Part shown: in pieces, positions 23,062-40,517 of the stretch
Layout of the letters: every line of letters starts with the position of its first letter
Numbering within the stretch: position 1 is the stretch's first letter
Assembly: GCA_964541595.1 (NCBI GenBank)
Contig: CAZIRO010000004.1
Location: 1 to 40,517 of the forward strand
Direction: 5' to 3'
DNA length: 40,517 nt
DNA from: an uncultured Acidobacteriota bacterium
GTDB lineage: Bacteria > Acidobacteriota > HRBIN11
Program-made: the position numbers and the translations under genes
Notes under the pieces: generated by a model
Seen by the model: the letters and a program-made list of their open reading frames with translations, nothing else
Told to the model about the DNA's origin: nothing
Database searches by the model: none

Positions 23062-23081
23062 CCGGAGTCTGGACACGCCCT

Positions 23082-23972: not shown

Positions 23973-23997
23973 GGCACCCGCATCTCCCGAATGCATG

Positions 23998-25413
23998 TTA
24001 CGACCGCCGTTTGCGTAACAGCATTTCCACTTCCCGACGGCGACGGGCTTCCTGCCGGGAACGGTACGCACCCCACTTTCTCTGTAACACAAACCACCCG
24101 CGTCCGACGAGAAATAGACCCCGCCACCAGAACAACCCCCGGGCACGGGCCCTGCGCAGGTCTGTACCCCACCACCACGCTGGATGGACACGTGCATGCG
24201 TCAGATCCGCATACTGGAAATTGGCCAAAGTCAATCGCGCCTTGCGAAAATCCGCGCCCACCAACTGTGCAAAACGGAAGTCCGCGCGATCGAATCGTCC
24301 TTCCCGCAGGTCCGCAAGGCCCATTCGCGCACGACCGAAATCCGCTTCTCGTGCCTCCGCCCCGACCAGCCGTGCACGCTCGAGACAGGCGCGGCGAAAC
24401 CGCGCACGGACAAGGTATGCGTGGGAAAAGTCCGCGCCGGTGAGATTGGCATCGGAGAAATCCGCTGCACCCCCGTCCGCCTGGGTGAAATCGCAGCCAC
24501 TGAGATCGAGTCCCGTAAATTGACACCGTTCCAGCCGCGCGCCTTTCCAGATACACTGTGCAAACCGTGCCGTATGAAAATCGACACCCGGCCAACTGGA
24601 CTGCGCGAACGTTACCCGCACCCACTGACTCTGCGCAACGTGGACCGACTGCGCGGACACCTTCCGGAAGACGCTTTCCAACCAGCGACTCTCCGTGAGG
24701 TCCGCGCTGTCCAATACGACGTTCTCCAGATTGCACTGCTTTCCGTAGACGAACCGCAGGTTTGCGGTCGTCAGCAGGGCATTCGTTAGCTGCACATGCT
24801 GCCAGCGCGCTCGAAAGAAGTTCGCACGCTGAAGATGGCTCCGCGCCGCCTGGACGTGTTGCCATTCACTCTCCCGCCATATCGAACGGTCCGCGTGTAC
24901 TTCGAGGAAATGCACGTTTTCCAGAGAAGCGCCGGTACAATCCGCATCGATCAGACGAATACGATTCAACTGGGCCTGAAAAAACCGCGCATACCGGAAG
25001 GTGCATGCGGTAAACGCCGCACCGTCCAGCCGGGCGTGGGCAAAATCCACGTGATCAAACCGGCACCCCTGGAATTCCCCGTTGCGCAGATCCGCATGCC
25101 GCAATGAGGCACCGGTCAGATCCACATCCTGCCACTGCGCAAAACTCAAATCGACGTGATCGAGAATGGCATCCGCAAGACGGGCACCCTGGATATGCAC
25201 ACCGTGCAGATCCGCACCGGTAAGGTTGGCCTGGGAGAGGTCTGCTTGTTCCAGATTGGCCCGGCGCAGTACGGCACGTTCCAGATTGAGTCCGCGCAAT
25301 TGCAGTCCCCGCAGATCGGCACCCTGTAAGTCCGGAGTGATCTCCGGGTGTGCCGCTCGCCACGCATTCCAGGTACCGGTGCGAATGTGTTCCACATGGG
25401 TCGGATCGGCCAT
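23998..25413 (-). CDS. Pentapeptide repeat protein
   Basis: About 380 aa of A(D/N)LxxA-type repeats; WNAWR N-terminal cap; Trp/Arg-rich C-terminal tail. Confidence 0.9.
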   Translation of the reverse strand: MADPTHVEHIRTGTWNAWRAAHPEITPDLQGADLRGLQLRGLNLERAVLRRANLEQADLSQANLTGADLHGVHIQGARLADAILDHVDLSFAQWQDVDLTGASLRHADLRNGEFQGCRFDHVDFAHARLDGAAFTACTFRYARFFQAQLNRIRLIDADCTGASLENVHFLEVHADRSIWRESEWQHVQAARSHLQRANFFRARWQHVQLTNALLTTANLRFVYGKQCNLENVVLDSADLTESRWLESVFRKVSAQSVHVAQSQWVRVTFAQSSWPGVDFHTARFAQCIWKGARLERCQFTGLDLSGCDFTQADGGAADFSDANLTGADFSHAYLVRARFRRACLERARLVGAEAREADFGRARMGLADLREGRFDRADFRFAQLVGADFRKARLTLANFQYADLTHARVHPAWWWGTDLRRARARGLFWWRGLFLVGRGWFVLQRKWGAYRSRQEARRRREVEMLLRKRRS

Positions 25414-25416
25414 GCG

Positions 25417-26238
25417 CTATTCCCCCGTTGATGTAGCCGCTCCCGGCCAGACCACATCCAGAGGGATGTCCGGGAGCTCGGCCGCAATATACTGCACGAC
25501 CGCCTCCATCTCCGTACGTGTCAATGGCCGCACACCCGGATACGCCGGATATCGATCTACCGTATACAACTGAATAGATTTCGGAACCAGGGCCTGCTGA
25601 CGAATCCAGGATGTCCATGCGGCCAGCGCATCGGGACGGATGTTTTTGCCCCTGCCGGCCAGGACCATGACCTGGAGATGAAAATCCCGGAGTTTGCGCA
25701 ATCCTTCGATGAAATGCGTCCACCGAAAACCAAACCGCGGCCGGTCCACCGTGATCAGATCAGCCCCCACCCCGTCCAGTTTTACCGAACGCTCGTCCAA
25801 ACGGTTCACCGCCCGCGCGATGCCATCCACGTGCAGACGCGTCCCGTTGGTCAGGATCCAGGTGCGTGCCCCGGGGAAAAAGCGGTCCCTCGCCTCCAGG
25901 AGGATCGCGATCAATTCCGGTGTGCGCGGATGTAACGTCGGTTCCCCGTTACCGGAGATCGTGATCGCATCCACACGGACGTTGCGTTCCGCCAGTTCCG
26001 CAAACACCCGCATGACTTCACGTGCAAATACGTCCACGCGGACGAAATCCTCCCGTCGCGGAAGCCGTTCCGTACGCCCGAGTTGACAGTACAGACAGTC
26101 GAAATTGCACACCTTGATCCACGGCGCAAACCAGTTGATTCCCAGGGACATCCCCAGTCGGCGTGAACGGACCGGGCCGTACACATACGTGCCGACCAGA
26201 TCGTGTCCCCGCTTCCGAGACAATACCGTTGCAGACAT
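25417..26238 (-). CDS. Radical SAM Fe-S protein (COG0731-like)
   Basis: YGPVRSRRLGMSLGIN, CNFDCLYC, SGNGEPTL, LTNG. Confidence 0.85.
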   Translation of the reverse strand: MSATVLSRKRGHDLVGTYVYGPVRSRRLGMSLGINWFAPWIKVCNFDCLYCQLGRTERLPRREDFVRVDVFAREVMRVFAELAERNVRVDAITISGNGEPTLHPRTPELIAILLEARDRFFPGARTWILTNGTRLHVDGIARAVNRLDERSVKLDGVGADLITVDRPRFGFRWTHFIEGLRKLRDFHLQVMVLAGRGKNIRPDALAAWTSWIRQQALVPKSIQLYTVDRYPAYPGVRPLTRTEMEAVVQYIAAELPDIPLDVVWPGAATSTGE

Positions 26239-26300
26239 GGTGCGCTCCCTCGTTCCGACCGCCCGGAATGAAGCCCATGCGGAGGAATCCGCCCCGGCGT

Positions 26301-27224
26301 TTACGCGATCCGTTCGGTGACCCGATCGGCCAGCGCGTGCAACAGTCCCTTCCGGTCCCAGGCGGTAACGGCCGCTTTCGCCCGTTCGCGCCACCGGATG
26401 GCCTCCTCGCGTGCACGGTCCAGTCCAACCGCCCGCGGATACGTCGCTTTCATCGTCTGCACGTCTTTACCCGCTGTCTTCCCGAGTACCTGACTCGTCT
26501 GAGTCACGTCCAGGATATCATCGACAATCTGAAAGGCAATCCCCAGGGCCTCGCCGTACGCCTGGAGCGCCTGCTGCACCCGGGGTTCAACCTGTGCAAT
26601 CTTGCCGCCGATCTCACACGCCGCGGTGATCAGGGCGGCGGTCTTATACCGGTGGATCCGCTGCACATGCGCTGCGTCCACCGGTCGACCTTCCGCTTCC
26701 AGATCAAGCACCTGGCCGACCACCATTCCGGAAAGCCCGGCACGCAACGCAAGAATCCGCATGACCTCCAGTCCGATCGCCGGGTGCGCGTTTAAAAAGG
26801 GGCAACGTCCCAGGAGTTCAAACGCATAGGTGAGTAATGCATCCCCAGCAAGGATCGCCATCGCTTCCCCGAACCGGACATGACAGGCCGGCCGTCCCCT
26901 GCGTAGTGTATCGTTGTCCATGGCGGGCAGATCGTCATGAATCAGAGAATACGTATGGATGCATTCGATCGCACACGCGCTATACCGATACCGTTCCATC
27001 TCGGTGCCGAACGTCTCTCCCACGGCCAGCATCAACACGGGCCGAAATCGTTTGCCCGGTGCGAGTAATGAATAACGCATGGCTTCCCAGAGGCGCGGTG
27101 CCGGTGTCCTCTCCGGGGGGCGTACGAGTTCGTCCAGCCACCGGTCGATCAGTGCTGCGCGTTCGACGAGATACGCGGTCAGGTCCTTACGGACGGGTAC
27201 AGGCATGATCGGATGCAACCCCAT
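26301..27224 (-). CDS. ispA: Polyprenyl (farnesyl/geranylgeranyl) diphosphate synthase
   Basis: GKRFRP, SLIHDDLPAMD..RRG, GQVLD, KTA, FQIVDDILD. Confidence 0.92.
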   Translation of the reverse strand: MGLHPIMPVPVRKDLTAYLVERAALIDRWLDELVRPPERTPAPRLWEAMRYSLLAPGKRFRPVLMLAVGETFGTEMERYRYSACAIECIHTYSLIHDDLPAMDNDTLRRGRPACHVRFGEAMAILAGDALLTYAFELLGRCPFLNAHPAIGLEVMRILALRAGLSGMVVGQVLDLEAEGRPVDAAHVQRIHRYKTAALITAACEIGGKIAQVEPRVQQALQAYGEALGIAFQIVDDILDVTQTSQVLGKTAGKDVQTMKATYPRAVGLDRAREEAIRWRERAKAAVTAWDRKGLLHALADRVTERIA

Positions 27225-27334
27225 TTCCCGGATTTCCAGGACATTATAGTCGCGCCCACGGAATTTGCACAGTCGACGAAACGTCGGCGATCGAACGGTC
27301 CGGTGTCCCGATGGCGTGCCACAAAAATCACAGA

Positions 27335-27427
27335 AAGTGAGGACAGGAGAGGAAATGTGACGGTGTGAAAAGTCACGACGGTTTCAATGCATGACAGCCA
27401 TTCGCGTCACTTTTCTCCTCGTCACTT
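27335..27427. repeat. Imperfect inverted repeat sharing a motif with 15752-15806
   Basis: AAGTGA..AGGAGA..GTGACG / CGTCAC..CTCCT..TCACTT; contains ATGCATGACAGCCATTCGCGTCACTTTTC. Confidence 0.45.
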
Positions 27428-27445
27428 CACTTGAGAAAAGAACCA

Positions 27446-28294
27446 CTAAGGCCCCACCGCTTCCGATGCCCGATCCGAAACAACGGTTGGATCGGCGACA
27501 CGTTCCGAGAACCGGGGGAACACGCCGTTGCGAACCTGAATCAAACGGGCGAGAATACTCACCGCGACTTCGTACGGGGATTTTCCACCAATGGGCACAC
27601 CGATCGGGGCATCCACCGCCTCAAGACGCGTCCGGGGAACGCCTGCACGTACCAGCGCCTGAAACGTCGACCGTACTTTCGTACGACTGCCGATCATGCC
27701 AATGTAAGCGACGTCATACCCGATCATGCGACGCAACACTTTTGCATCCACATCGTGACAACGGGTCACGATGACAATGTATGCCGAAGACGGCGGCGGC
27801 GGAATGTGTGCCGTGTACGCGCGATCCGTACAGATCGCCCGTACATCGGCCGTCTTCGGCAGCCGATCCAGCCACTCCGGCCGATCGTCGATCACCGTGA
27901 TCTCGAACAGACGCGTCTGTGCAGCCAGCGTACAGAGCGCCTGACCGATGTGACCCGCACCGAAGATCCACAGTGGCGTCCGGGGATACACGACCTCAAA
28001 ATAAACCTGCACACGACCGCCGCACCGCATGCCGAGACTGCGATAATTCAAATCGTATTCCTTCACCGCAGAACAGAGATCGCCCCGCAGGATGGTCAGT
28101 GCATCCCGAATCACGGCCGCTTCAAACGGACCGCCGCCGATCGTGAACTCCGTGTGGCCGTCGGCACGGACGATCAGACGACTACCGGGTGCGTTCGGCG
28201 CGGAACCCCGGCAGCCGATCAGATGCGCGATGACGAGCGGTTGACCCTGTTTAAGCAGATCCAGCACACGTGCGTAAAACGTTCGGTCATCCAT
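27446..28294 (-). CDS. XdhC/CoxI-family molybdoenzyme maturation factor
   Basis: GSAP, TIGGG, CGG, FGAGH, DDR, YIGMIGSR, PIG...GGKSP. Confidence 0.9.
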   Translation of the reverse strand: MDDRTFYARVLDLLKQGQPLVIAHLIGCRGSAPNAPGSRLIVRADGHTEFTIGGGPFEAAVIRDALTILRGDLCSAVKEYDLNYRSLGMRCGGRVQVYFEVVYPRTPLWIFGAGHIGQALCTLAAQTRLFEITVIDDRPEWLDRLPKTADVRAICTDRAYTAHIPPPPSSAYIVIVTRCHDVDAKVLRRMIGYDVAYIGMIGSRTKVRSTFQALVRAGVPRTRLEAVDAPIGVPIGGKSPYEVAVSILARLIQVRNGVFPRFSERVADPTVVSDRASEAVGP

Positions 28295-28297
28295 CGA

Positions 28298-29806
28298 TCA
28301 CGCCGGTGAACCCTCGAGTAAGGTCCGCAAGCGGACCTTACTGTAAGCCTTGGCCATGGTGACATACCGTTTGACATCGTTCCAGGACTTGATCGACTTC
28401 AGGGCCTTCGGAATCTTACGCAATACGCTGTATCCCTGGACCTGCGACCACTCAAACAGCAGTTCACTGATCTGCTCCCAGGAAAGTCGATCGATATACA
28501 GCGGAATGTCCCCCTGCGACGCCGGGAGCGTTACAATACCCTCCGGATTCGGTACACTCCAGGAGAAATCACGCGGAATGATCCCCTCACGGCGTGCCCG
28601 GGCTTCGATCGGCGTTCCCGGATAAATGTGCATAATGCTGATCGAAACATCGATCTGCTGGTTGCGCTCCCTGGCCTCCCGTTTCAGACTCAAAATGTAG
28701 TCCATCGTCATCCGGGCCTCTTCATACGTTTCCGTCGGATGCGAGAAGATAAAGAACGGATTCGGGATGATCCCGAGATCCCAGCACCAGCGGATCACCC
28801 GCGTCACCTTGTCGATCGTGAATCCCTTGCCCTTCCGAATGACTTCCTGCAGAATCCGCGGAGACGCCGATTCCACGCCCATGCCGATGAGGAAACAACC
28901 GGCTTCGCGCATCTTCTTTAACAGTGCATAGTCCACCGTATCGATACGGATCTCACAGTACCAGGACAGATCGAGTTTCGCATCGATGATGAGGTCACAC
29001 AGATCATGAATGCGCCGCGGATTGAATGTAAACGTGTCATCGAAAAACCAGAGCCCCCGTACCCCGTACTCATTCACAAGGATGTGGATCTCCTCCATAA
29101 TGCGTTCCGGAGAATTCGCCCGAACCTTTCGTCCCCAGTTAAACGGCGTGGCACAGAACTCACAGGTAAACGGACACCCGCGGCTCGTCATCAGATTCAA
29201 TGCCCGCCGTCGACCTTTGTGCGGATCGTCCACATGAAACGTATACGCATGCATAGGATACAGATGCCGCGCGGGAAAGGGCAATTCGTCGAGGTTCTCG
29301 ATCACCGGACGGGGCGGGGTATGGAATATCGTGCCATCCCGGTCCCGGAAAGAGATTCCGCGGACTCTTTTCAGATCGCCGCCGCGTTCCAGCGCCTGCA
29401 CGAGTTCGAGCATGGTGAATTCACCTTCTCCGCGCACAATGAAATCGCACCACGGCACATGCGTCAGCGTGTCCTCCGCGGCATTCCATACGTGCGGTCC
29501 CCCGAGGACCGTGATCACATGTGGAAAGTGTTGTTTGATCAGGCGAAGCGTCTCGAACGCGTAAAACCGGTTCTCGGTGGTGAACGTCAGGCCGACAATG
29601 TCCGGACTCCACTGCCGCACTTCCCGCACGACGTCATCGTAGGTCATGCGCAGGGCATTCGCGTCAAGAATCCCACAGGTATATCCCTCCTGTTCCAGCA
29701 CAGCGGCGATATAGCCAATACCCAGCGCGGGGATCAGTTCACCGTGGCTCCACCGTTCCGCAAGGTATCCACCCGGCGGTACCATCAACAGGATACGCGT
29801 GGACAT
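28298..29806 (-). CDS. Cobalamin-binding radical SAM protein
   Basis: LGIGYIAAVL, GGPH, GEGE B12 domain; TSRGCPFTCEFC; FFDDTF; GVES; GGAGG RBS before ATG 29806. Confidence 0.9.
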   Translation of the reverse strand: MSTRILLMVPPGGYLAERWSHGELIPALGIGYIAAVLEQEGYTCGILDANALRMTYDDVVREVRQWSPDIVGLTFTTENRFYAFETLRLIKQHFPHVITVLGGPHVWNAAEDTLTHVPWCDFIVRGEGEFTMLELVQALERGGDLKRVRGISFRDRDGTIFHTPPRPVIENLDELPFPARHLYPMHAYTFHVDDPHKGRRRALNLMTSRGCPFTCEFCATPFNWGRKVRANSPERIMEEIHILVNEYGVRGLWFFDDTFTFNPRRIHDLCDLIIDAKLDLSWYCEIRIDTVDYALLKKMREAGCFLIGMGVESASPRILQEVIRKGKGFTIDKVTRVIRWCWDLGIIPNPFFIFSHPTETYEEARMTMDYILSLKREARERNQQIDVSISIMHIYPGTPIEARARREGIIPRDFSWSVPNPEGIVTLPASQGDIPLYIDRLSWEQISELLFEWSQVQGYSVLRKIPKALKSIKSWNDVKRYVTMAKAYSKVRLRTLLEGSPA

Positions 29807-29975
29807 TGCACCCTCCACACGGACAATAACGGGTTCCACTCCGGGGGCGACCGTATTTCACTCTATCGGAAGGACGGCCTTTCGTCAATGGCAAGGCGTG
29901 GCGGGCTGTTCGAATGGTCATGCGGGCACCCGACGCTCCGGACAAACCGACTGTTTGCTGCTTCGATGACGCGTA

Positions 29976-30051
29976 TGGCTGGGGCGGCAGGACTCGAACC
30001 TGCGAATGTGGGATCCAAAGTCCCATGCCTTACCTGCTTGGCTACGCCCCA
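29976..30051 (-). tRNA. tRNA-Gln (anticodon TTG)
   Basis: TGGGGCGTAGCCAAGCAGGTAAGGCA TGGGA CT TTG GA TCCCA...GGTTCGAGTCC...CCA. Confidence 0.95.
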
Positions 30052-30067
30052 GCATGTCCTGTATACT

Positions 30068-30096
30068 ATTATGGGCGACCGACGGCTATTCTGCAA
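30068..30096 (-). promoter_or_regulatory. Predicted sigma70 promoter for tRNA-Gln
   Basis: TTGCAG-17 nt-CATAAT. Confidence 0.55.
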
Positions 30097-30241
30097 GCCA
30101 CGTTTGCCCCCGCGGTCATCACCGCATCGTCCGTAAATATTGAATATTTATGAATATCGATAAACCGGGAAGTTTCGCAGCGACGTGCACGCATACGGCG
30201 CGTGTACGCAGCACCCTGCAGAGGCAACAGGAGATGCCATC

Positions 30242-31432
30242 ATGGGTCGACCCGGACGACCTGTAGTCATCATCGGATACGCACGCACACCGATCGGGAG
30301 TTTTCTCGGGAGCCTGCGCACGCTGAGTGCCCCGCAACTCGGTGCAGTGGCCATCCAAGCCGCGCTGCAACGCGCACACGTCGCGCCCACCGACGTGCAG
30401 GAAGTCATCATGGGTCAGGTCATCCAGGCAGGCACCGGTCAGGCGCCCGCCCGTCAGGCGGCGATATTCGCCGGCCTGCCGACGTCCGTCGAGTGTCTGA
30501 CCGTCAACAAGGTCTGCGGTTCCGGTCTGAAGGCCGTCATGCTCGGCGCGCAGGCGATCGCGCTTGCGGACGCCGACATCGTCGTTGCCGGTGGCATGGA
30601 GAGCATGAGTCGGGCACCGTATCTCCTGGATCGGGCCCGCAGCGGATATCGGCTCGGGCATGCGGAACTCTACGATGCGATGATCCTGGACGGTTTGTGG
30701 GACGTCTATAACCGCATGCACATGGGCAACTGTGCGGAGCACTGCGCACGGAAACTGCACATCTCGCGAGCAGAACAGGACGCGTATGCGGAAGAGAGTT
30801 ACCGCCGGGCCCTGCACGCGATGGACCAGGGGTGGTTTGATCGGGAAATCGTCCCCGTTGAGGTCCGGGATCGAAAGGGGCGACTGACGGTGGTTCGGGA
30901 AGACGAGGAACCCCGCCGATTCCAGCCGGAGAAGATGCAACAGTTGCCGCCGGTATTCGATCCGGAGGGCTCGATCACGGCAGCGAACGCGTCGAAGATC
31001 AACGACGGTGCAGCGGCCGTGGTCATCGCTGCCGAAGACGTGGCGCGCGCCCGCGGACTCCCCATTCTCGCGCACATTGTCGACTTCTGCGCGGCGGCCC
31101 GGGACCCGATCGAGTTCCCGCTCGCACCGATCAACGCCATCGAAAAACTGCTCGCGCGGACGGGGCTCCGTCCGGAGGCCATCGATCTTTACGAGATCAA
31201 CGAGGCCTTTGCCGCCGTGGCCATCGGCGTCATCCGGGAACTCCGCCTCGACCCCGCCCGGGTGAACGTGCACGGCGGCGCCGTCGCCCTCGGTCACCCG
31301 ATCGGGGCAAGCGGCGCCCGACTGCTCTGCACGCTGCTGAACGCACTGGAGATCCACGGGGGGCGCTACGGCGTGGTCAGCCTCTGCCTCGGCGGCGGCG
31401 AGGCGGTGGCCATGCTCGTCGCGCGGGATTGA
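30242..31432 (+). CDS. Acetyl-CoA C-acetyltransferase (thiolase)
   Basis: NKVCGSG, GGMESMS, INEAF, GHPIGASG, CLGGG. Confidence 0.95.
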   Translation: MGRPGRPVVIIGYARTPIGSFLGSLRTLSAPQLGAVAIQAALQRAHVAPTDVQEVIMGQVIQAGTGQAPARQAAIFAGLPTSVECLTVNKVCGSGLKAVMLGAQAIALADADIVVAGGMESMSRAPYLLDRARSGYRLGHAELYDAMILDGLWDVYNRMHMGNCAEHCARKLHISRAEQDAYAEESYRRALHAMDQGWFDREIVPVEVRDRKGRLTVVREDEEPRRFQPEKMQQLPPVFDPEGSITAANASKINDGAAAVVIAAEDVARARGLPILAHIVDFCAAARDPIEFPLAPINAIEKLLARTGLRPEAIDLYEINEAFAAVAIGVIRELRLDPARVNVHGGAVALGHPIGASGARLLCTLLNALEIHGGRYGVVSLCLGGGEAVAMLVARD

Positions 31433-31434
31433 GG

Positions 31435-31450
31435 TGTTCCACGTGGAACA
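31435..31450. other. parS centromere-like site
   Basis: Perfect palindrome TGTTCCACGTGGAACA matching the bacterial parS consensus. Confidence 0.9.
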
Positions 31451-31469
31451 CCCCGCCGACACCCGGTGT

Positions 31470-32348
31470 TCACGCATGGCGCGGTTCCGCGTACGCCCAC
31501 CCCTCCGGGAAGATCTGTCCGCTGCACACCCGGCGGGCCTCCCCTTCGACCTCGATCGCCATCAGACGGGGTCCCTGCGGCGCCAGGCGCACGACGAGAT
31601 CGACCCCGGCCCGGGTGTGAAAACGGTACTCCGGCCAGCGCAGCCCCTTCGCGTGGAAGGCGAGGGCGGTGCTCACACATCCGCTGCCACAGGAATACGT
31701 CTCCGCCTCGACCCCCCGTTCGTACGTGCGGATGTCGATCTCCCCGGCGCGCACGATGTGCACGAAATTCACATTCGTTCCACGTGGAACAAACGCCGCA
31801 TGCCAGCGGAGCCGTCGTCCGTAATACGTGACGTTGATGTTCCAGATGTTGCGGACCGGGACCACGATATGGGGATCGCCGACGCGCACGTAGTGGTAGC
31901 GCAGCCCGATGGTGTCCAGGCGGATGTGTCGATCGAGCGCGAGTTCAACCGTGCGCAGCATCCGCAGGGTGACGCGATCGTATTCGACGTGCGCCTCGAT
32001 GAGCCCGACGTTCGTTTCGATGGTGAGTTGACGGTGCGTGATGACGTGCACGACGGCGTACCGCGCCACACACCGCGTGCCGTTCATACACATGTTGAAT
32101 TCGGTGCCGTCCGGATTGAAAAACCGGACGCGGATGTGTGCCTTGACGCTGGACTCGAGGAGAATGAGGCCGTCCGCCCCGATCGAGAGGTGCCGATCGC
32201 AGAGGCGCCGGGCCAGGGTGGACGCGTGGGCAGAATATACACCGGAGCGGTTGTCCAGAATGATAAAGTCGTTGCCGGCGCCCACCCACTTGTCAAAGGG
32301 GATCGCTTCCGGATGGTCCGGGCCGAATGTCGGCGCGCGGTGCGTCAT
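31470..32348 (-). CDS. dapF: Diaminopimelate epimerase
   Basis: GAGNDF, IGADG, FNPDGTEFNMCMNG, GDPH, TYERGV, SCGSG (both catalytic Cys present). Confidence 0.88.
   Translation of the reverse strand: MTHRAPTFGPDHPEAIPFDKWVGAGNDFIILDNRSGVYSAHASTLARRLCDRHLSIGADGLILLESSVKAHIRVRFFNPDGTEFNMCMNGTRCVARYAVVHVITHRQLTIETNVGLIEAHVEYDRVTLRMLRTVELALDRHIRLDTIGLRYHYVRVGDPHIVVPVRNIWNINVTYYGRRLRWHAAFVPRGTNVNFVHIVRAGEIDIRTYERGVEAETYSCGSGCVSTALAFHAKGLRWPEYRFHTRAGVDLVVRLAPQGPRLMAIEVEGEARRVCSGQIFPEGWAYAEPRHA
31776..31791. other. Second parS site, inside dapF
   Basis: CGTTCCACGTGGAACA, 15/16 identical to the first site. Confidence 0.8.
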
Positions 32349-32607
32349 GAGTCTCCGGCCATTCGATTTCGTATTGTTCGATGATGGGATTCGTCAGGAT
32401 GCGTTCCGCGATCGTCCGGATCTGCGCACGTGCGCGGTCGTTGAGCGGTCCCTGCCACTCGATGACGAACACCTTGCCGGTGTGGACCTGCAGCGCGCGG
32501 TCGTATCCGAGGGTGTGCAACACGTTGCGGATGGTTTTCCCCTGTGGATCGAGCACGCCCGGCTTATACCGCACAATGACGCGCACGCGTGCCACGTCCG
32601 TACTCAT
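32293..32607 (-). CDS. purS: Phosphoribosylformylglycinamidine synthase subunit PurS
   Basis: KPGVLDPQG, GK, LTNPIIE. Confidence 0.9.
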   Translation of the reverse strand: MSTDVARVRVIVRYKPGVLDPQGKTIRNVLHTLGYDRALQVHTGKVFVIEWQGPLNDRARAQIRTIAERILTNPIIEQYEIEWPETHDAPRADIRPGPSGSDPL

Positions 32608-33905
32608 GCGCTGTCTCCAAGGACGCGTTGGTAAATTGTATTGATATGTCTTTTATAATATTCGATATCGGTGTAGCGTGCGATGTCGTCCGGGGTGAGA
32701 TACTGCATGACTTCGGGATCCGCGCGTATCGCAGCGATGAAGTCCGTGCCCGCTTCCCACGCACGCATCGCATTTCGCTGAACCAGTCGGTATGCATCCA
32801 CCCGGGATACCCCCTTCTCGATCAGGGCCACAAGGATGCCGGATGAAAAGATGAGTCCCTTCGTGAACCGCAGGTTCTCGTCCATCCGGTCCGGATGCAC
32901 CCGCAAGTGCGCGATCAGCCAGATACAGCGATCCAGCATGTAATCCAGCGCAATGGATGCATCGGGTAAGATGATCCGTTCGACGGAAGAGTGACTGATG
33001 TCGCGTTCATGCCACAGGGCGACGTTTTCCATAGCGGCCATGGCGTACGCACGCAATACGCGGGCCAGACCGCAGAGTCGCTCCGCTGTGATGGGGTTGC
33101 GTTTGTGAGGCATCGCGGAAGATCCCTTCTGTCCGGGTCGGAAGGGTTCCTCCGCTTCACGCACTTCGGTCCGTTGCAGGTGGCGAATCTCCAGCGCCAC
33201 TTTCTCGATACTCGCTCCGATCAGCGCAAGGGTGAGAACGTATTCCGCGTGCCGATCACGCTGGGTGATCTGATTCGACACGGGTTCCGGTTGCAGGCCG
33301 AACTTGGTACAAACGATCCGCTCAACTTCGGGTTCCAGGTGGGCGTATACCCCTACGGCGCCGGAAATTTTCCCGACCGCCACGCGCTGACGCGTCGCCG
33401 CAAGCCGTTCCCGGTGCCGCTGAAATTCTGCGTACCAGAGCAAGAACTTCAAGCCAAAGGTCATCGGTTCTGCGTGTACGCCGTGTGTTCGCCCGACACA
33501 TGCGATGTCCCGGTAGGCAATGGCTTTCTCTTTCAATACCGTACACAGGTGATCGATCCGTTGAAGCAACAGATCACAACTCTCTTTCATCTGGATCGCC
33601 GTGGCCGTATCGAGGATATCGGACGATGTCAGCCCGAGGTGAATGTATCGTCCGAGGTCGCCAAGGGATTCGGCCACGGATTCCACGAATGCGACAACGT
33701 CATGTTGTGTCTGCTGTTCTATCGCTTCCATCCGTTCCTGCGAAAACCGAACGCGCGCGGCGATCTCAGAATACACTTCCGGCGAAATGCGTCCGGTCTG
33801 CACATACGCTTCCAATACGGCGAGCTCGATCTGCAACCAGAGCGCATACCGATGGGCATCGGACCAGATGCGGCCCATTTCGGGCAGCGTATACCTCGGG
33901 ATCAT
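32604..33905 (-). CDS. purB: Adenylosuccinate lyase
   Basis: MIPRY, HDV, HLGLTSSD, GRTHG, GSSAMPHKRNP, ERDISHSSVER. Confidence 0.97.
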   Translation of the reverse strand: MIPRYTLPEMGRIWSDAHRYALWLQIELAVLEAYVQTGRISPEVYSEIAARVRFSQERMEAIEQQTQHDVVAFVESVAESLGDLGRYIHLGLTSSDILDTATAIQMKESCDLLLQRIDHLCTVLKEKAIAYRDIACVGRTHGVHAEPMTFGLKFLLWYAEFQRHRERLAATRQRVAVGKISGAVGVYAHLEPEVERIVCTKFGLQPEPVSNQITQRDRHAEYVLTLALIGASIEKVALEIRHLQRTEVREAEEPFRPGQKGSSAMPHKRNPITAERLCGLARVLRAYAMAAMENVALWHERDISHSSVERIILPDASIALDYMLDRCIWLIAHLRVHPDRMDENLRFTKGLIFSSGILVALIEKGVSRVDAYRLVQRNAMRAWEAGTDFIAAIRADPEVMQYLTPDDIARYTDIEYYKRHINTIYQRVLGDSA

Positions 33906-33942
33906 CGTGTGTCTCCGTGCACAGGGTATCGATATTCTATCC

Positions 33943-34106
33943 CTGCGATCGGGACGGGCAACGGGAATGTATCGAACCGGCAGATACACCGATATCGGGT
34001 GCCGGGGCTCAGGGATCAAGGCGCAGGGAGTTCGACTTCGCATGGAATGGGACATCGCACGGATGAATGGATACCCGCAGTGTCCCATCGCCTGTCCCGG
34101 TTTCAG
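33943..34106. mobile_element. Complete, more diverged MITE-like element with an 11-bp flanking direct repeat
   Basis: CTGCGATCGGGACGGGCAACGGGA...TGTCCCATCGCCTGTCCCGGTTTCAG; flanks ATATTCTATCC (33932-33942) and ATATTCTATGC (34107-34117). Confidence 0.72.
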
Positions 34107-34108
34107 AT

Positions 34109-34144
34109 ATTCTATGCGAATTGCGTTTTTGTGCAATTCGCATA
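34109..34144 (-). promoter_or_regulatory. Predicted leftward promoter overlapped by a 12-bp perfect inverted repeat
   Basis: TTGCAC-16 nt-TAGAAT on the minus strand; TATGCGAATTGC / GCAATTCGCATA at 34113-34144. Confidence 0.45.
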
Positions 34145-34149
34145 CAATT

Positions 34150-34386
34150 CTGGGATCGGGACAGGCCATGGGACATGCGCACCATCGGAACCACCGGTCT
34201 CGGGTGTCAGGTCCCAGGTCTCCGGTATCAGGTCCCAGGTCCCAGCCAGGTCCCAGGTGGCGGGTATTCCGGTGGCAGGTATTTGCGACGGGAGACGGAA
34301 GACAGGGGACGGGGCATCGCATGGGCTGGGGATAGCGCGTGACCGCATGCGGACCCACGGTGTCCCATGGCCTGGCCCGATTTCAG
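34150..34386. mobile_element. Complete MITE-like element with a perfect 10-bp flanking direct repeat and heptamer core
   Basis: TIRs CTGGGATCGGGACAGGCCATGGGACA / TGTCCCATGGCCTGGCCCGATTTCAG; GCATACAATT at 34140-34149 and 34387-34396. Confidence 0.85.
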
Positions 34387-34453
34387 GCATACAATTGGGG
34401 GAAATCGCACCGTTCTGGTGAAATCTGGTCGGTGCGTTTTGGGAGCCGTTCGC

Positions 34454-34948
34454 ATGCGTTTGCCTGTTCAGATCAAACACATTCTCTTCGCCACGGACTT
34501 TTCTGTATATTCGGAACGTGCGCGGGACTATGCACTTGCGGTCGCCAAGAAGTTCCGTGCGCGGATTTACGTCTTGCATGCGATCGAAGTCGTGCACTAC
34601 ATGCATGAGGATCCCGAGTTACGCGAATGGCTCCGTTCTCTGGAACGGTCGCTGGAGGACCGTCTGGCCAGAGAACTCGCCTATTTTCAGGATTACGGCA
34701 TTGATGCCGAAGGGGAACTCATCATCGGTTCTCCCTGGCGCGTGATCGTGACCTTTGCCAAAGAGAAACGGATCGATCTCATCGTCATGGGCACCCATGG
34801 AGTACGCACGCTGGAGGGAAAAGTCCTGCTGGGCACGACGTCACATAAAGTGGCACTGGCTGCGTCCGTCCCGGTGATGCTGGTCCGTCCCTATGAAGAA
34901 GCATCTCTCCTGACCGAAGATCCGCATCGCGTCCCGGCCGAGGAGTAG
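34454..34948 (+). CDS. Universal stress protein (UspA family)
   Basis: HILFATDFS, GSP, DLIVMGTHG, LLGTTS...VPVMLVR. Confidence 0.92.
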   Translation: MRLPVQIKHILFATDFSVYSERARDYALAVAKKFRARIYVLHAIEVVHYMHEDPELREWLRSLERSLEDRLARELAYFQDYGIDAEGELIIGSPWRVIVTFAKEKRIDLIVMGTHGVRTLEGKVLLGTTSHKVALAASVPVMLVRPYEEASLLTEDPHRVPAEE

Positions 34949-34951
34949 ATC

Positions 34952-35938
34952 ATGGCGGGGCACGCGCTTTCTTCCGACGCCGAACTCATCGCCATCGGTC
35001 GCCAGGTGATCCGCACCGAGGTGGAGGGCCTACACAGGCTGATGCAGCACATCGGCAACTCGTTTGCCGCGGCGGTGCACTGCCTTTGTGCGTGCTCCGG
35101 ACGCGTGATCGTCTCCGGGATCGGCAAGTCCGGAGTGATCGGCAAAAAACTGGCGGGATCCCTCACCAGCATCGGTGTGCCCGGCATCTTCCTCCATCCC
35201 GTGGAGGCGTTGCACGGTGATCTCGGGCTGATCCTTCCGGAGGACGTGCTGATCGTACTGTCGTACAGTGGCGAGACGGTCGAGATTCTCCGTTTTGTGG
35301 AGTGGATTCATCGGTATGATATTCCCATTATCGCGATGACCGGTAACGCCCGATCCACACTCGCGCGGTACAGTACCATCGTACTGGCGATCGGACCAGT
35401 GGAAGAAGCGACGCCGGAGCGTCTGTTGCCGACGACCAGCACGACGGTCATGCTCGCGCTGAGTGATGCTCTGACCGTGGCCGTCATGCATGCGAAAGGC
35501 GTCCGCGACGGTATGGTGGCGCACCTGCACCCCTCGGGCAGCATCGGCCGGAAGATCCTGCAGGTCAAAGAAGTCATGCATCGACCGCCCGAGCTGCCCC
35601 TGGTCGCCGCAGATGTTTCCGTGCCTGAGGCCGTACGTGAGATGTCCCGTAAGGGATTCGGTTGTGTGCTGGTGGTCGACACGATCGGCCACCTCGCCGG
35701 GATCTTTACCGATGGCGATCTGCGCCGCACGATCGAACGGTATCGTGACGTATCGACGCTCCGCATCGGGGACGTCATGACCCCGCATCCGAAGACACTC
35801 GCGCCTGATGCGCTGGCGGCCGACGCGCTGCGGTTGATGGAGAAATTCCGGATTACGGTATTGCCCGTAATCGATAGCGACCGTCATCCCGTGGGCCTCG
35901 TTCACATTCACGACCTGTGGCGACTGCAGATGTTCTGA
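34952..35938 (+). CDS. kdsD: KpsF/GutQ-family arabinose-5-phosphate isomerase (SIS plus 2 CBS domains)
   Basis: GIGKSG, EALHGDLG, SYSGET, PTTST, HPSGSIG, GIFTDGDLRR. Confidence 0.9.
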   Translation: MAGHALSSDAELIAIGRQVIRTEVEGLHRLMQHIGNSFAAAVHCLCACSGRVIVSGIGKSGVIGKKLAGSLTSIGVPGIFLHPVEALHGDLGLILPEDVLIVLSYSGETVEILRFVEWIHRYDIPIIAMTGNARSTLARYSTIVLAIGPVEEATPERLLPTTSTTVMLALSDALTVAVMHAKGVRDGMVAHLHPSGSIGRKILQVKEVMHRPPELPLVAADVSVPEAVREMSRKGFGCVLVVDTIGHLAGIFTDGDLRRTIERYRDVSTLRIGDVMTPHPKTLAPDALAADALRLMEKFRITVLPVIDSDRHPVGLVHIHDLWRLQMF

Positions 35939-36049
35939 TGCATGGGATTCCGTCGATCTCCGCACGCGTGCGCATGCAACATACTTTTTCCCATCCGATT
36001 TTTCCGTATCCGTATGTAGGGTCGATGCACCCATTGACATGTAAACCAC

Positions 36050-37165
36050 GTGGAGCAAACGATGCGTCGCCCGAATCGTCTGCAAACGGCCGGTGCGGAA
36101 GCGACGCCGGCACTCCCCGAGCTTGTGGGCCGCTCGCACGCGATGTGCACGGTCCGTACCCGGATCCGTCGTATTGCCCCCCTGTCCATTCCCGTGCTCA
36201 TTCTGGGGGAAACGGGAACCGGCAAAGAACTCGTGGCCCGGCGCATCCACCTGGAGAGCGACCGTGCGGGTCGCCCGTGGGTGCCGATCAACTGTGCAGC
36301 GATTCCGGACACCCTGTTCGAAGGGGAACTGTTCGGTTACAGCCGCGGCGCGTTTACGGGAGCGGACCGCACGCGTCCGGGGTTGCTGGAGTCCGCTGCG
36401 GATGGCACTGTTTTCCTGGATGAAGTTGCCGAACTCTCGCCCGCCGGTCAGGCGAAACTGTTGCGTGTGCTTCAGGAACAGACGATTCGCCGCCTGGGCG
36501 AGACGTGGGAGCGACCTCTCGCCTGCCGGTGGATTTTCGCCGCACAGCCGTCTCTGCTGGAGCGCGTGCGGACCGGTCAGTTCCGCATGGATCTGTTTTT
36601 TCGCATTGCACGCTACCGGATTCAGCTGCCGCCATTGCGGGATCGGCCGGAAGACATCCCGATCACAGCGCGTTTTATTCTTCGCCGTCTGACCGCTCAG
36701 TTTGGCCTCCGCATTGACCGCGTCGAACCGGAAGTCTGGTCCACGCTGGAACAGTATTTGTGGCCGGGAAATGTACGCGAACTCGAAGCCGTGCTGACGG
36801 CTGCGGTCATCGACGCACTGGATGGTCGGGTATTATGTGCATCGCATGTACGGACGCACCTGGGCAATTTCAGCATTTTTCCACATCCCGCACCGGCCGA
36901 TGCACACGGCGTATGGACGTTCTCCATGCCCGCCGAACTCACGCTACTGGAGGCGCTGGACCGATTCGCGTATGCATACGTCCTGCGCACACTGCAGCAG
37001 TGCGATGGTGTCAAGGTCGCGGCGGCGCGGAAATTGCGCATTCATCGAAACAGGCTGTACCGGATTCTGCGCAGTCATCGAACGGACACCGGGTACAACC
37101 GTCCGGATCGAATGACCAGACGCTGGACATGTGGGGCAGCGTGCTGCAACCAGAATTTCCGGTGA
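36050..37165 (+). CDS. Sigma54-dependent enhancer-binding protein (AAA+ plus Fis HTH) with no N-terminal sensor domain
   Basis: GETGTGKE, INCAA, ELFG..GAFTGA, FLDEV, WPGNVREL, AARKLRIHRNRLY. Confidence 0.88.
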   Translation: MEQTMRRPNRLQTAGAEATPALPELVGRSHAMCTVRTRIRRIAPLSIPVLILGETGTGKELVARRIHLESDRAGRPWVPINCAAIPDTLFEGELFGYSRGAFTGADRTRPGLLESAADGTVFLDEVAELSPAGQAKLLRVLQEQTIRRLGETWERPLACRWIFAAQPSLLERVRTGQFRMDLFFRIARYRIQLPPLRDRPEDIPITARFILRRLTAQFGLRIDRVEPEVWSTLEQYLWPGNVRELEAVLTAAVIDALDGRVLCASHVRTHLGNFSIFPHPAPADAHGVWTFSMPAELTLLEALDRFAYAYVLRTLQQCDGVKVAAARKLRIHRNRLYRILRSHRTDTGYNRPDRMTRRWTCGAACCNQNFR

Positions 37166-38163
37166 CTCGTCAGCAGCACGTACGGGTGTGGAAAAATCGT
37201 GAATAAGTCCCGGGCACGTGGGGTATCCAGTTCGGCATCGAAGTCATCGATGAGGAGACGCAATGGTCTGGCGTGTATTTGCTGGACCAGCCGTGCGATG
37301 GCGCAACCCCATACGGTCAGCAGGGCACGGATCTGCCCTGCGGAGGCGGTATCCCAGAACGATCCATGCGGTCCGAAGACACGCAAATCATCCCGGTGCG
37401 GTCCGACGAGGGAACGGCCGTGCGCCCGTTCCCGGGATGCAAATTTTTCCAACATTTGAAGCACTTCTTCAGGCGAAGGCGGGGACTGTTCCGGGGACCA
37501 GAACGGACTGGTGAGCGCTATTCGGAGCGGTCGTCCCGGAAACAGCCGCACCCACATGCGTGCAATGATTGGACGGACCTGACGCACCAGATACGCGCGC
37601 ATCTCCCAGATCTTTGCCGCCGCCGTGCAGTAGGGCACATCCCAGACGTGTTGCTCTGCGGACGGACTTCCGGATGCCAGGGCGGCATTGCGCTGGTTTC
37701 GGGCCTGGTCAAACCGCTGTAGCCACTTTCGATACTGTGGAAAAATCGTGGACAGGCTTCGGTCCAGAAACTGACGACGATACGACGCGCGCGCGGCGAG
37801 CAGGGGCACCGCACGACCGCCGAGGTATAGCACGGGATTCTGCGCACGCCAGACACTGAATGCGACCGCATGGCCCTGAACAAACAGGCGTGCCGGACCG
37901 TCGCGCGGAATGACGAGTTCCACGGTCTCGAACCGTTCCGACCACTCCACACACACCCGGGCAATCGGGGCGCCTGAACGGATCACCCGGTCTTTGCGGC
38001 GGGTGCGAAACGACCGCCCATGGACCATCCAGTAAAACGCTTCCAGAAGACTGGTTTTTCCGCTTGCATTGGGGCCTACAATAATGGTAAGGGTGTCCTC
38101 CAGTTCAATGTCGACCTGGAGATTCCGGAAATGCTCAATCTTCCATTTCCATCGCGCCGTCAT
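37075..38163 (-). CDS. recF: DNA replication/repair protein RecF
   Basis: FRNL, GPNASGKTSLLEA, GRSFR, RNAAL, GPHRDDL, SAGQ, LIDD..ELD; directly downstream of dnaN. Confidence 0.9.
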   Translation of the reverse strand: MTARWKWKIEHFRNLQVDIELEDTLTIIVGPNASGKTSLLEAFYWMVHGRSFRTRRKDRVIRSGAPIARVCVEWSERFETVELVIPRDGPARLFVQGHAVAFSVWRAQNPVLYLGGRAVPLLAARASYRRQFLDRSLSTIFPQYRKWLQRFDQARNQRNAALASGSPSAEQHVWDVPYCTAAAKIWEMRAYLVRQVRPIIARMWVRLFPGRPLRIALTSPFWSPEQSPPSPEEVLQMLEKFASRERAHGRSLVGPHRDDLRVFGPHGSFWDTASAGQIRALLTVWGCAIARLVQQIHARPLRLLIDDFDAELDTPRARDLFTIFPHPYVLLTSHRKFWLQHAAPHVQRLVIRSGRLYPVSVR

Positions 38164-39355
38164 CGACGAAATCGGCCTCCTTTGGTGCGGCAGCCTCGGA
38201 CGCGCGTTCCGTCTCTTCCACCTGTTCCTCTGCGATAGGCATGTATACGAATGCGAACGTTTCCGTTCGATCCTCGCCGACGGGACGGATCGCCGCCGGT
38301 TCGCGTGTCGATTTGAACCACAGTTCGATTTCGTTCTCATGCACGGCAGACAGAAACTCTACGAGGAATTCGCCATTGACGCAGATGGGAAACGGCTCGC
38401 CCTCGACGAACGCTTCAACCATATCCGTAGCCGTACCCGTGGCCGGATTGTGGAATTTCAATTCCAGCATGCGATCGCGCCATGTCAGCCAGACGGATGG
38501 CGCATGGGCAAGCGGGGTCCCCTTGGCCAGCAAAATGATTCGCCGCACGGATTCCAACAACGCAGCCCGCTGGACCCGCACACGATATGGCGCCGATTCG
38601 GGAATGAAACTCCGAAACTCGGGGAATGTGTCTTCGATCATTCGAATGCTGATCCGCCGGTTGCCGAGATCAAACACAATCAGATTCTGATGCGTACCGA
38701 TCTGCACCGTTTCAATCGCGTCCGCAGCGAGTACATTGCGCAATTCTTGCAGGGCTTTCCGGTGGATCAGCAGGGTAAAGTCTTCCTGTGGTGCACCCTC
38801 TTCCCAGCGGGTCTGGTAATACGCCAGCCGGTAGATATCCATTGCCGCGGCCGCGAGGGTTTCCCCGCGCTTTTCCAGCCACATCCCGAGGAATGCTTCC
38901 CGGAGCGTATGTTTCGGGATGACAAAATCGACCGTATCCATGGCCCTGCGGAGCATCCACCCGGGCAATCGAACGGTATGCTCCGTTTCACCGGGAATCT
39001 GGGGCATGGGATAGTCTTCCGGCGACAGTGCCAACACTTCAAAACAGGTGCGTCCCGCACGGATGACCACCTGCGGCAACGTTTGCAATTCGATCTCGAC
39101 CCGCGTATTGGGAAGTGACTTGACGATGTCGACCAGAATACGCGCGGGCAGTGCGACTTTTCCGGGGGTTTCCACCTGCGCGGGAATCGTGGAGGCATAA
39201 CTGAGTTCCATATCCGAGGCCGTCAGACGTATCTGTTCGGCCTCGGCTTCCAGAAGGAAGTAAGACAGTGTAGGGATCGCCGATTTCCTTTCAATTGCAC
39301 CCTGGATCAGTCGGAGTTCCGTGTGAAACGGTTCCTTTTCGACTGAACAACGCAT
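38135..39355 (-). CDS. dnaN: DNA polymerase III beta clamp
   Basis: IPTLS, ASDME, DYP, DIYRLA, FPEF, VYMP; acidic C-terminal tail. Confidence 0.92.
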   Translation of the reverse strand: MRCSVEKEPFHTELRLIQGAIERKSAIPTLSYFLLEAEAEQIRLTASDMELSYASTIPAQVETPGKVALPARILVDIVKSLPNTRVEIELQTLPQVVIRAGRTCFEVLALSPEDYPMPQIPGETEHTVRLPGWMLRRAMDTVDFVIPKHTLREAFLGMWLEKRGETLAAAAMDIYRLAYYQTRWEEGAPQEDFTLLIHRKALQELRNVLAADAIETVQIGTHQNLIVFDLGNRRISIRMIEDTFPEFRSFIPESAPYRVRVQRAALLESVRRIILLAKGTPLAHAPSVWLTWRDRMLELKFHNPATGTATDMVEAFVEGEPFPICVNGEFLVEFLSAVHENEIELWFKSTREPAAIRPVGEDRTETFAFVYMPIAEEQVEETERASEAAAPKEADFVDDGAMEMED

Positions 39356-39383
39356 GGATCACCTCATTTGCGGTGTTGGCATC

Positions 39384-39412
39384 ATCTTACGCGGGTTGAA
39401 CGTTCTGATCAA
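39384..39412 (-). promoter_or_regulatory. Predicted sigma70 promoter for dnaN-recF
   Basis: TTGATC-17 nt-TAAGAT; palindrome TCTGATCAATCAGA overlaps the -35. Confidence 0.5.
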
Positions 39413-39424
39413 TCAGAGTCGATC

Positions 39425-39633
39425 CTGGGATCGGGACAGGCCATGGGACACCGTGGGTACCCATGCGGTCATGCACTATCCCCAGCCCATGGGATACCCC
39501 GTCCCCTGTCTTCCGTCTCCCGTCCCGGAGACCCGACACCCGGGACCTGAGACCTGACACCCGACACCCGGTGTCGACCGGGCCATCCGCGCATCCGGTG
39601 CATCCCCTGTCCCATTGCCTGTCCCGATCTCCG
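39425..39633. mobile_element. Complete MITE-like element with an approximately 8-bp flanking direct repeat
   Basis: TIRs CTGGGATCGGGACAGGCCATGGGACA / TGTCCCATTGCCTGTCCCGATCTCCG; GTCGATCC at 39418-39425 and 39633-39640 (boundary ambiguous by 1 nt). Confidence 0.82.
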
Positions 39634-39717
39634 TCGATCCGGTTGAGGAAATATATCGGATGTGATAAAGTTTTCTGGGGTTGGGTGGTGTTAAGTTGCT
39701 ATCCGGGAAAGTCAATA

Positions 39718-40517
39718 ATGGAAGAGTGCAACTCCTGGCGCATCCTGTGGGTGGGACCAGGTCCTGCCGACCGGGATGACTTCACCACTGCACTGGCCCG
39801 AACCTGTGGACCGACTGAACTCACACGGGAGGATCGTTTATCAGCTGTCCAGCAGCGACTGCAACAGACGACATTCGATCTGGTCATTGTGCATATGCGC
39901 ATCCTCCAACGGTGGAATGTCGATCCGGTGCCCTGGTTTCGACGGATCCGTCCAGACCTGCCGATTCTCGTCCTGGCCGATCGCATGGAAGATGTTCCCC
40001 CGCACTGGCAACGTCTGGCCGGTGTATATGTGGACGCCGATCCGGCACGCGATCCCGCAGCGCTGATCGAGCATATCCGGGCGATTTTGCACGACACGCA
40101 CGCGGACGGCGTGTCCATGCAAGCCGGAGAGAGCGCCCTGGACGTCCCGAACGTCGTACCCGTCGGTCTGTACCGGGTGTCGCCGGACGGTCGATGGATC
40201 GATGCGAACTCCGAGATGCTGTCGATCCTGCGGGTTCGGGATCTGGTGGATCTGGAGGCCTTTCCCTTTCCGCAGCTATTCTGCAACCCCTCGGATTGGG
40301 AGTATCGGATCGCCCGGTTGACCGCACACGGAGCGGTGCGTAATCTGCGTGTGCGGCTGCAACGTCCGGACGGAAGCGAGTTCTGGGGGCTGGACAGCGC
40401 ACGTGTCGTGCGCGGACCGGACGGTACCGTCTTATACCATGTCGGTGCCCTGGTGGACATCAGTGCCTGGGTATTGCGGGACCGGGAGCGGGACGCGGTA
40501 CAGACCGTGCTACGGAT
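39718..40517 (+). CDS. Signal-transduction protein with a receiver-like domain and PAS/PAC domain (partial; runs off the window; absent from the ORF track)
   Basis: Open frame from ATG 39718: MEECNSWRILWVG...FDLVIVH...PDLPILVL...PVGLYRVSPDGRWIDAN...RPDGSEFW...GALVDIS. Confidence 0.8.
   Translation, partial: MEECNSWRILWVGPGPADRDDFTTALARTCGPTELTREDRLSAVQQRLQQTTFDLVIVHMRILQRWNVDPVPWFRRIRPDLPILVLADRMEDVPPHWQRLAGVYVDADPARDPAALIEHIRAILHDTHADGVSMQAGESALDVPNVVPVGLYRVSPDGRWIDANSEMLSILRVRDLVDLEAFPFPQLFCNPSDWEYRIARLTAHGAVRNLRVRLQRPDGSEFWGLDSARVVRGPDGTVLYHVGALVDISAWVLRDRERDAVQTVLR

Follow-up and report, generated by a model that had tools for sequence, protein, structure and literature searches.

The window analysed here, 40,517 nucleotides in length, is one entire contig (C4) of a 2.88-Mb genome that is assembled in 294 contigs and has 59% G+C. 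At positions 34150–34386 it carries a complete copy (237 bp) of a MITE with 26-nt inverted repeats and an internal tandem array of CAGGTCC (7.7 repeats, 34208–34258), flanked by an exact 10-bp target duplication, GCATACAATT (left, 34140–34149; right, 34387–34396). To its left lies another complete copy (164 bp, 33943–34106), more degenerate in sequence, between the two arms of an 11-bp duplication (ATATTCTATSC, 10/11 matching; 33932–33942 and 34107–34117). The 43-bp stretch that separates the two copies (34107–34149) holds two back-to-back promoters, the -35 box of each lying inside the spacer of the other. The leftward promoter (34109–34136, minus strand), with -35 box TTGCAC (34131–34136), a 16-nt spacer and TAGAAT (34109–34114), points towards a purB-like gene (32604–33905, minus strand), with 3 nt between its -35 box and the duplication of the 34150 copy. 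The rightward promoter (34121–34148, plus strand), with TTGCGT (34121–34126), a 16-nt spacer and TACAAT (34143–34148), points towards a universal-stress-protein gene (34367–34948), with its -35 box 3 nt past the right-hand duplication of the 33943 copy. As that duplication overlaps and duplicates the -10 box of the leftward promoter, the leader of the purB-like gene now probably runs through a MITE.

Two more complete copies occur in the window. One (209 bp, 39425–39633) is flanked by TCGATC (39419–39424 and 39634–39639), and beyond its right duplication follow CGG, TTGAGG (39643–39648), a 17-nt spacer and TAAAGT (39666–39671). The other (185 bp, 20174–20358) has a 14-bp duplication (12/14 matching; 20160–20173 and 20359–20372) and lies 11 nt from the -35 box of a minus-strand tRNA promoter (TTGCCA, 20157–20162; TAATAT, 20134–20139; tRNA gene, 20049–20122), which counts among the promoters targeted by the element. 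Three copies are incomplete. A truncated plus-strand copy at 1177–1262 (end approximate) has a left repeat at 1177–1202 and no recognisable right end, and 11 nt from it a minus-strand promoter (TTGACA, 1160–1165; 16-nt spacer; TATGAT, 1138–1143) points towards an MBL-fold gene (173–1114). A degenerate or truncated plus-strand copy at 18221–18345 (end approximate) has a left repeat at 18221–18246, no recognisable second end, and a minus-strand promoter at a distance of 13 nt (TTGACA, 18202–18207; 17-nt spacer; TAATAT, 18179–18184). At 1–40, where the contig starts, only the right end of a copy remains, with a degenerate repeat and no TTG at offsets 9–13 of the flank.

Using the 26-mer CTGGGATCGGGACAGGCAATGGGACA as a query (≤3 mismatches), 8 matches to the inverted repeat were found in the window, compared to 0 in 100 shuffles: 15–40 (-), 1177 (+), 18221 (+), 20174 (+), 20333–20358 (-), 34150 (+), 39425 (+), and 39608–39633 (-). 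The degenerate 33943–34106 copy and the right end of the 34150–34386 copy were recovered as the repeats D1 and D7 and the inverted pair I25, so that every place in an earlier note on this DNA, which had listed at least seven copies or ends, was confirmed. That note had also read GGGACA twice in the repeat at 12-nt spacing, correctly (positions 9–14 and 21–26). Genome-wide, the 18-nt core (≤3 mismatches) occurs 563 times on 206 of the 294 contigs, and the boundary of the element is sharp, information content rising from 0.07 bits at position -9 to 1.23 bits at position -8, the terminal C. There are 137 complete copies with ≥30 nt of flank and 134 with ≥70 nt; the latter are non-coding and 133–399 bp long. 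A further 139 internal ends have no recognisable partner end, the 1177 and 18221 copies of the window being of the same kind. Element ends run off contig ends in 132 cases and 176 core matches lie ≤300 nt from a contig end; the repeat is probably the main reason for the assembly being in 294 pieces. By our estimate the family comprises several hundred loci, roughly 2–3% of the 2.9-Mb genome. For the best pairwise identity between copies the median is 86% and the maximum 95%, and the family looks old and may be extinct in the source genome or lineage.

An exact 22-mer of the repeat had 0 matches in a scan of 185,579 species genomes, and the repeat occurred in none of 30 relatives searched. A degenerate 18-mer matched at least 82 loci across unrelated phyla, 81 with a single match and one with two matches, which was read as chance. 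Metagenome contigs with the repeat (n = 45) all came from one sample; 44 match the source genome at 99–100%, and the 45th carries the repeat and no transposase. These contigs represent the same population with the same insertions and add nothing independent. Short contigs of the source organism were also present in a run from a different study (X2), with 0–6 letter differences per piece listed, and over window positions 20100–40000 the depth of this run was raised in the bins that hold MITE copies, so that both organism and repeat are represented in more than one data set. The contigs of X2 and of another run (X1) over the same positions break at the copies and give repeat-to-repeat joints, none of which skips exactly one copy; they are uninformative on polymorphism. 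The closest genomes belong to another genus and align in coding DNA only (65–70% DNA identity), with a different gene order. No empty site or presence–absence polymorphism was found among the 45 same-population contigs, the diverged sister genus, and the X1 and X2 contigs, and it is therefore from the duplications alone that mobility of the MITE is deduced.

Target-site duplications were assessed by comparing each left flank with its own right flank, with left and right flanks re-paired at random as the control. An exact flanking repeat of ≥5 bp was present in 42 of 137 complete copies, compared to ~0.4 expected under random re-pairing, with exact lengths of 6 bp (8 copies), 7 bp (15), 8 bp (9), 9 bp (3), and 10 bp (5), and thus a mode of 7 bp. 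In 65 of the 137 there is no exact flanking match whatsoever. The flanks themselves are unique (11 short similar pairs among 458). An origin as REP/BIME-like repeats or as transcription-factor sites was rejected because of the duplications. The proposal in the earlier note that the elements are flanked by direct repeats of variable length thus holds beyond chance across the genomic copies, and the length is truly variable. Of the lengths given there for the four complete copies, 14 bp (12/14), 11 bp (10/11), and a perfect 10 bp stand; the fourth, described as about 8 bp, is exactly 6 bp (TCGATC of the 39425–39633 copy), reaching ~8 only if the G and C that terminate the repeats are included. 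The cause of the variation, a promoter-side edge fixed 3 nt from the -35 box, had been missed.

This cause becomes apparent when the flanks are read outward from the element ends. A TTG is present at offsets 9–13 in 108 of 268 flanks, compared to ~3 per offset elsewhere. When aligned on this TTG, the flanks show TTG[AC][AC]A (TTGMMA), a 17-nt spacer, and TAnnnT (A2, 63%; T6, 67%), with no further conservation. A two-box promoter test (≥4/6 per hexamer, A2 and T6 in the -10 box, spacer 16–18) gave 143 matches at offsets 9–13 among 548 ends (19, 45, 40, 25, and 14 from offset 9 to offset 13), compared to 0–6 at other offsets or on the opposite strand. Of 130 flanks on promoter-bearing sides, 104 have their longest ORF directed outward. 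Given unique flanks and outward-pointing ORFs, these are ordinary host promoters that lie outside the element and outside the duplication.

The register between duplication and promoter is exact. Among the 64 copies with a duplication of ≥6 bp and ≤1 mismatch, 41 have a TTG exactly 3 nt past the duplication, compared to ≤4 for any other gap and a background TTG frequency of 0.0107 per position. Under a stricter count, 40 such copies have duplications of 6 bp (7 copies), 7 bp (16), 8 bp (5), 9 bp (5), 10 bp (6), and 12 bp (1); 25 of these duplications are exact, including five exact 10-mers. With the promoter-side edge of the duplication fixed and its far edge moving, both the variable duplication length and the 9–13 nt spread of element-to-promoter distance are accounted for. 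The rule is broken by 23 of the 64 duplication-bearing copies, including the 20174 copy of the window, the 14-bp duplication of which reaches 3 nt into the -35 box of the tRNA promoter, and a TTG at offsets 9–13 is absent from both sides of 39 of the 134 complete copies.

The same measurements bear on three other accounts of the pattern. Insertion could have been essentially random, with the promoter association reflecting the survivorship of harmless copies just upstream of promoters; the age of the copies (median best identity 86%) would have left time for selection, and flanks without a detected promoter also mostly face outward-pointing genes (216/328), a general bias towards upstream regions. 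Selection, however, is unable to set a single-nucleotide register such as the 3-nt gap of 41 of 64 duplications (other gaps ≤4), harmless intergenic space further up- or downstream of genes is unused (offsets 14–39 hold 0–4 promoter matches each), and the same register recurs in single-copy relatives from another phylum. Survivorship is thus considered unlikely, and targeted insertion, rather than selection, is the best reading and a probable one. A duplication fixed at 7 bp, with the variation due to chance extension, decay, and ambiguous boundaries, would suit the mode of 7 bp, those 6-bp cases that become 7 bp once the terminal C of the element is counted (e.g., the 39425 copy), and the one-base chance extension expected in about a quarter of copies. 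It is nonetheless very improbable: the five exact 10-bp duplications are not chance extensions of 7 bp (an estimated ~1.6% each), and the distance from element end to TTG itself varies (9–13) and tracks duplication length while the gap stays at 3. It also seems quite unlikely that the different lengths go back to a series of transposase variants, or to MITE subfamilies, that each had a constant stagger. The family does have subtypes, with two kinds of end (A and B) and several terminal octamers, and is old enough for several bursts, but the offset distributions of A and B ends are not significantly different (chi-square p = 0.15) and every terminal-dinucleotide class spans offsets 9–13.

The two kinds of end differ in how often they face the promoter. 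Among the A ends 113 of 216 are promoter-facing, and among the B ends 55 of 184. The odds ratio is 2.6 (p = 7e-6, a value overstated because copies within one genome are not independent). An end bearing CTGGGATC or CTGAGATC is promoter-facing about twice as often as an end with CTGAAATC.

The earlier note had found no transposase in the window and had proposed a non-autonomous element mobilised in trans. Of the seven transposase families searched in the genome none falls on the contig of the window, and the window indeed holds no matching transposase; this, the short length (133–399 bp), the sharp ends, and the duplications at unique sites all support non-autonomous elements that would have been moved in trans. 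The profile search of the genome gave no match to NF033529, NF033572, PF06782, or PF00872, and the IS256, rve, and IS1595 families were not found in it. Three long repeat pairs in the genome (2.2–3.2 kb) enclose ordinary-looking frames. Matches to PF01609 were found in two places. One is on contig C38, where positions 2–898 encode a 299-residue protein with a Pfam DDE_Tnp_1 domain above the cut-off; its stop codon abuts a MITE-type repeat, CTGAGATCGGGACAGGAAATGGGACA, at 902–927, and 10 nt beyond that repeat lies TTGCTT, a 17-nt spacer, and TATCAT. This gene is the only copy in the assembly, with one end seen, and the first 93 residues are missing, including the first catalytic Asp, so that the copy is a dead relic. 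No intact transposase of this clade is present in the source assembly. A short sequence, TATCATAAT, is shared between C38:1–60, upstream of the truncation point, and C38:950–980, past the right end, and may be chance or the trace of a deletion event. The other place is on contig C222, where a 333-aa IS5-like frame (2276–3277; L166:1336–2337, minus strand) scores 108 bits with NF033579, below the cut-off. This gene was rejected as the partner, being IS5-like and having no MITE repeat within 7 mismatches.

A full-length homologue of the C38 product is available among public proteins (P0003; 373 aa, 82% identical). By alignment its catalytic residues are D90-(80)-D171-(95)-E267, the D-to-E spacing of 95 falling 5 short of the 100–150 quoted for IS4 (D(60–110)D(100–150)E), and its YREK motif is complete (Y260/R263/E267/K274), a motif also found in the C38 fragment. 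Its best NCBIfam model is IS4 NF033591 (85 bits, below the 152-bit cut-off), with the IS1380, IS701, and IS1634 models scoring lower and NF033559 (IS1634/IS1549) giving 24 bits only. A profile sequence search of the PDB with P0003 gave no match; the AlphaFold model (pLDDT 87.9) has Tn5 transposase as all five of its best PDB fold matches (E, 2e-11 to 9e-11; TMq, 0.53–0.55). From this alignment and predicted fold P0003 is called a putative IS4/Tn5-like transposase outside the curated subgroups. No match to P0003 was found by tblastn against plasmids, nor was there a match in viral contigs scanned with the alignment A1. An IS4/Tn5-like transposase of this kind is a strong candidate for the partner enzyme of the MITE, as the C38 stop codon abuts a repeat of the identical type and relatives in another phylum lie between repeats that are 20/26 identical.

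Within the phylum of the source genome, a search of 400 genomes found the transposase only as a relic in the sister genus. There, a related element bounded by 26-nt ends CTGACCTTCRGAKATGAGTTYGGACA is present in a few copies (L169/L170, G001 contig C4; G002 contigs); a relic of the related gene lies between the 26-nt ends CTGACCTTCAGAGATGAGTTCGGACA, and in one copy, a relic with an internal deletion, no more than the N-terminal 170 transposase residues are left. A TTG at offsets 10–12 is present at 3 of 9 ends. A search of 300 Thermodesulfobacteriota-phylum genomes gave one weak match to the transposase. In one order of the Chloroflexota the clade is present in 9 of 151 sampled genomes (including G631), as elements of ~1.2 kb that carry the transposase and have 26-nt ends (e.g., CTGAGATCCGGACATGAGTTAGGACA) identical to the MITE ends at 20 of 26 positions by manual count. 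As in the MITE, these ends start with 5'-CTG and hold two GGACA sub-repeats at a distance of 12 nt; 5'-CT ends are also a feature of IS10 and IS50. The geometry is the same as well. A TTG at offsets 9–13 is found at 8 of 15 Chloroflexota ends, a small sample, and both elements with a clear duplication show the duplication, 3 nt, and TTG in that order (6 bp in L185; 7 bp in L193), with a third (L200) having the promoter-side TTG and no duplication. In G1093 the promoter-side end is always the CTGAGATCC end (3/3) and the other end never (0/4), a bias of which the MITE displays a weaker form.

Promoter targeting itself is a known behaviour. In the available text of Guerillot et al. 2014 (PMC3942029) it is described for TnGBS, ISLre2, and the ISKra4 group, elements with a -35 box 15–17 nt from the end, duplications of 8–9 bp, and ends with a terminal C; such elements can insert in either orientation when their ends are near-symmetric, and asymmetric ends bias the choice. 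The MITE resembles these elements in inserting a fixed short distance upstream of a housekeeping-sigma -35 box and in its terminal C, whereas it differs in having an apparently IS4/Tn5-like rather than Mutator-like enzyme, a -35 box at 9–13 nt, duplications of 6–10 bp, and a constant 3-nt gap. Mobilisation of the MITE by a promoter-seeking enzyme of the Mutator-like ISKra4/ISLre2/TnGBS type would fit this shared behaviour (insertion upstream of sigma70/sigmaA promoters, terminal C, both orientations when ends are near-symmetric, as given in the same text, PMC3942029), and ISKra4 transposases do exist in the phylum (11 of 301 sampled genomes above the cut-off). Against it, the genome has no match to the four corresponding profiles (NF033529, NF033572, PF06782, PF00872), none of 30 ISKra4-type loci has a match to the MITE repeat at <8 mismatches, and MITE-type ends flank an IS4-like gene instead of a Mutator-like one. 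An ISKra4 element of the same phylum (L140), used as a control, fits the published pattern with a 9-bp duplication and the -35 box at 16 nt, as opposed to offsets of 9–13 nt and duplications of 6–10 bp in the MITE. We regard a Mutator-like mobiliser as extremely improbable.

The comparison with the IS4 family (IS10, IS50/Tn5, ISPepr1) is closer. In the available text of De Palmenaer et al. 2008 (PMC2266710) the YREK motif, Y-(2)-R-(3)-E-(6)-K, is the hallmark of that family, and duplications of 7–8 bp are given for ISPepr1 and variable lengths for some IS4 elements. P0003, likewise a DDE transposase encoded by one ORF, shares the complete YREK motif and has a predicted Tn5 fold, and the MITE duplications are also near one helical turn; P0003 differs in being shorter (373 aa) and in scoring below the cut-off of every NCBIfam IS4 model. 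No promoter targeting by the IS4 family is described in the literature searched, including the available text of PMC2266710. The likeness to IS1549 that had been suggested for the variable duplications in the earlier note does not fit. IS1634/IS1549 elements mostly lack the Arg of YREK and have duplications of 5–6 bp or long variable ones of 8–514 bp (PMC2266710, available text). They share variable length with the MITE, but the range here is narrow (6–12 bp, mostly 6–10 bp) and promoter-anchored, and the YREK motif of P0003 is complete.

Correia/NEMIS elements of Neisseria, which are classical bacterial MITEs, are likewise short, non-coding, high-copy and intergenic, with inverted-repeat ends and target duplications; they duplicate TA and are not known to have a fixed register to -35 boxes, in contrast to the exact register of the MITE described here. 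For IS186, a member of the IS4 family, the lon promoter of E. coli is a hot spot.

The best explanation, to which a probability of roughly 75% is assigned, is that the MITE family comes from, and was moved by, an insertion sequence of the IS4/Tn5 superfamily, with integration pinned 3 nt upstream of the -35 hexamer. Under this model the MITEs would derive from an insertion sequence with an IS4/Tn5-superfamily transposase and be mobilised by it in trans, the enzyme binding the 26-nt ends with their 5'-CTG start and two GGGACA sub-repeats 12 nt apart. The element would integrate just upstream of sigma70-type promoters, with the position of one strand transfer set at 3 nt upstream of the -35 hexamer and that of the second mostly 6–10 nt further upstream (mode 7). 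The chemistry would presumably be cut-and-paste, as is typical of IS4 elements, and the -35 region may be read by the transposase itself or via docking on bound sigma or RNA polymerase. A wider reading is offered as a tentative possibility, namely that promoter-anchored integration arose in a Tn5-like clade, represented in two phyla or more, independently of the Mutator-like TnGBS/ISKra4 elements, most likely by docking of the synaptic complex on the -35 box or on sigma70/RNA polymerase, and that in this vent bacterium the MITE tagged well over 100 promoters and, if so, sits where upstream activators and UP elements act, such that it may have rewired regulation across the genome.

By the available text of PMC3942029, published cases of promoter-targeted transposition in bacteria are confined to a single transposase superfamily, and in the literature searched, including the available text of PMC9208149 and PMC10433421, only Mutator-like elements are named as promoter-seeking; the same habit is suggested here for a Tn5-like enzyme. 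The behaviour is thus known, and what is new is the transposase lineage and the geometry. The identity of the candidate partner, the pinned-edge rule, and the support across phyla are new as well. Tn5-like enzymes are the best-understood transposase class and the basis of tagmentation tools, and a testable geometry, with one cut fixed to the -35 box and the other flexible, provides a handle on how a DDE transposase reads a promoter and on the variable-length duplications of some elements. The element also matters for annotation, with >100 probable promoters of an uncultured organism marked by it.

The interior of the element has features of its own. One copy was predicted to fold into a strong hairpin (z = -4.0), and an RNA gene was rejected for it as the fold simply mirrors the inverted repeats; Rfam matches in the window are limited to three tRNAs. 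The CAGGTCC array of the 34150 copy has a counterpart in the 39425 copy, where ACCCGAC is repeated 5.7 times (39531–39570). The lengths of 74 of 134 copies fall into just two residue classes modulo 7, a 7-nt step that follows from the heptad arrays of the interior, copies differing in the number of heptads.
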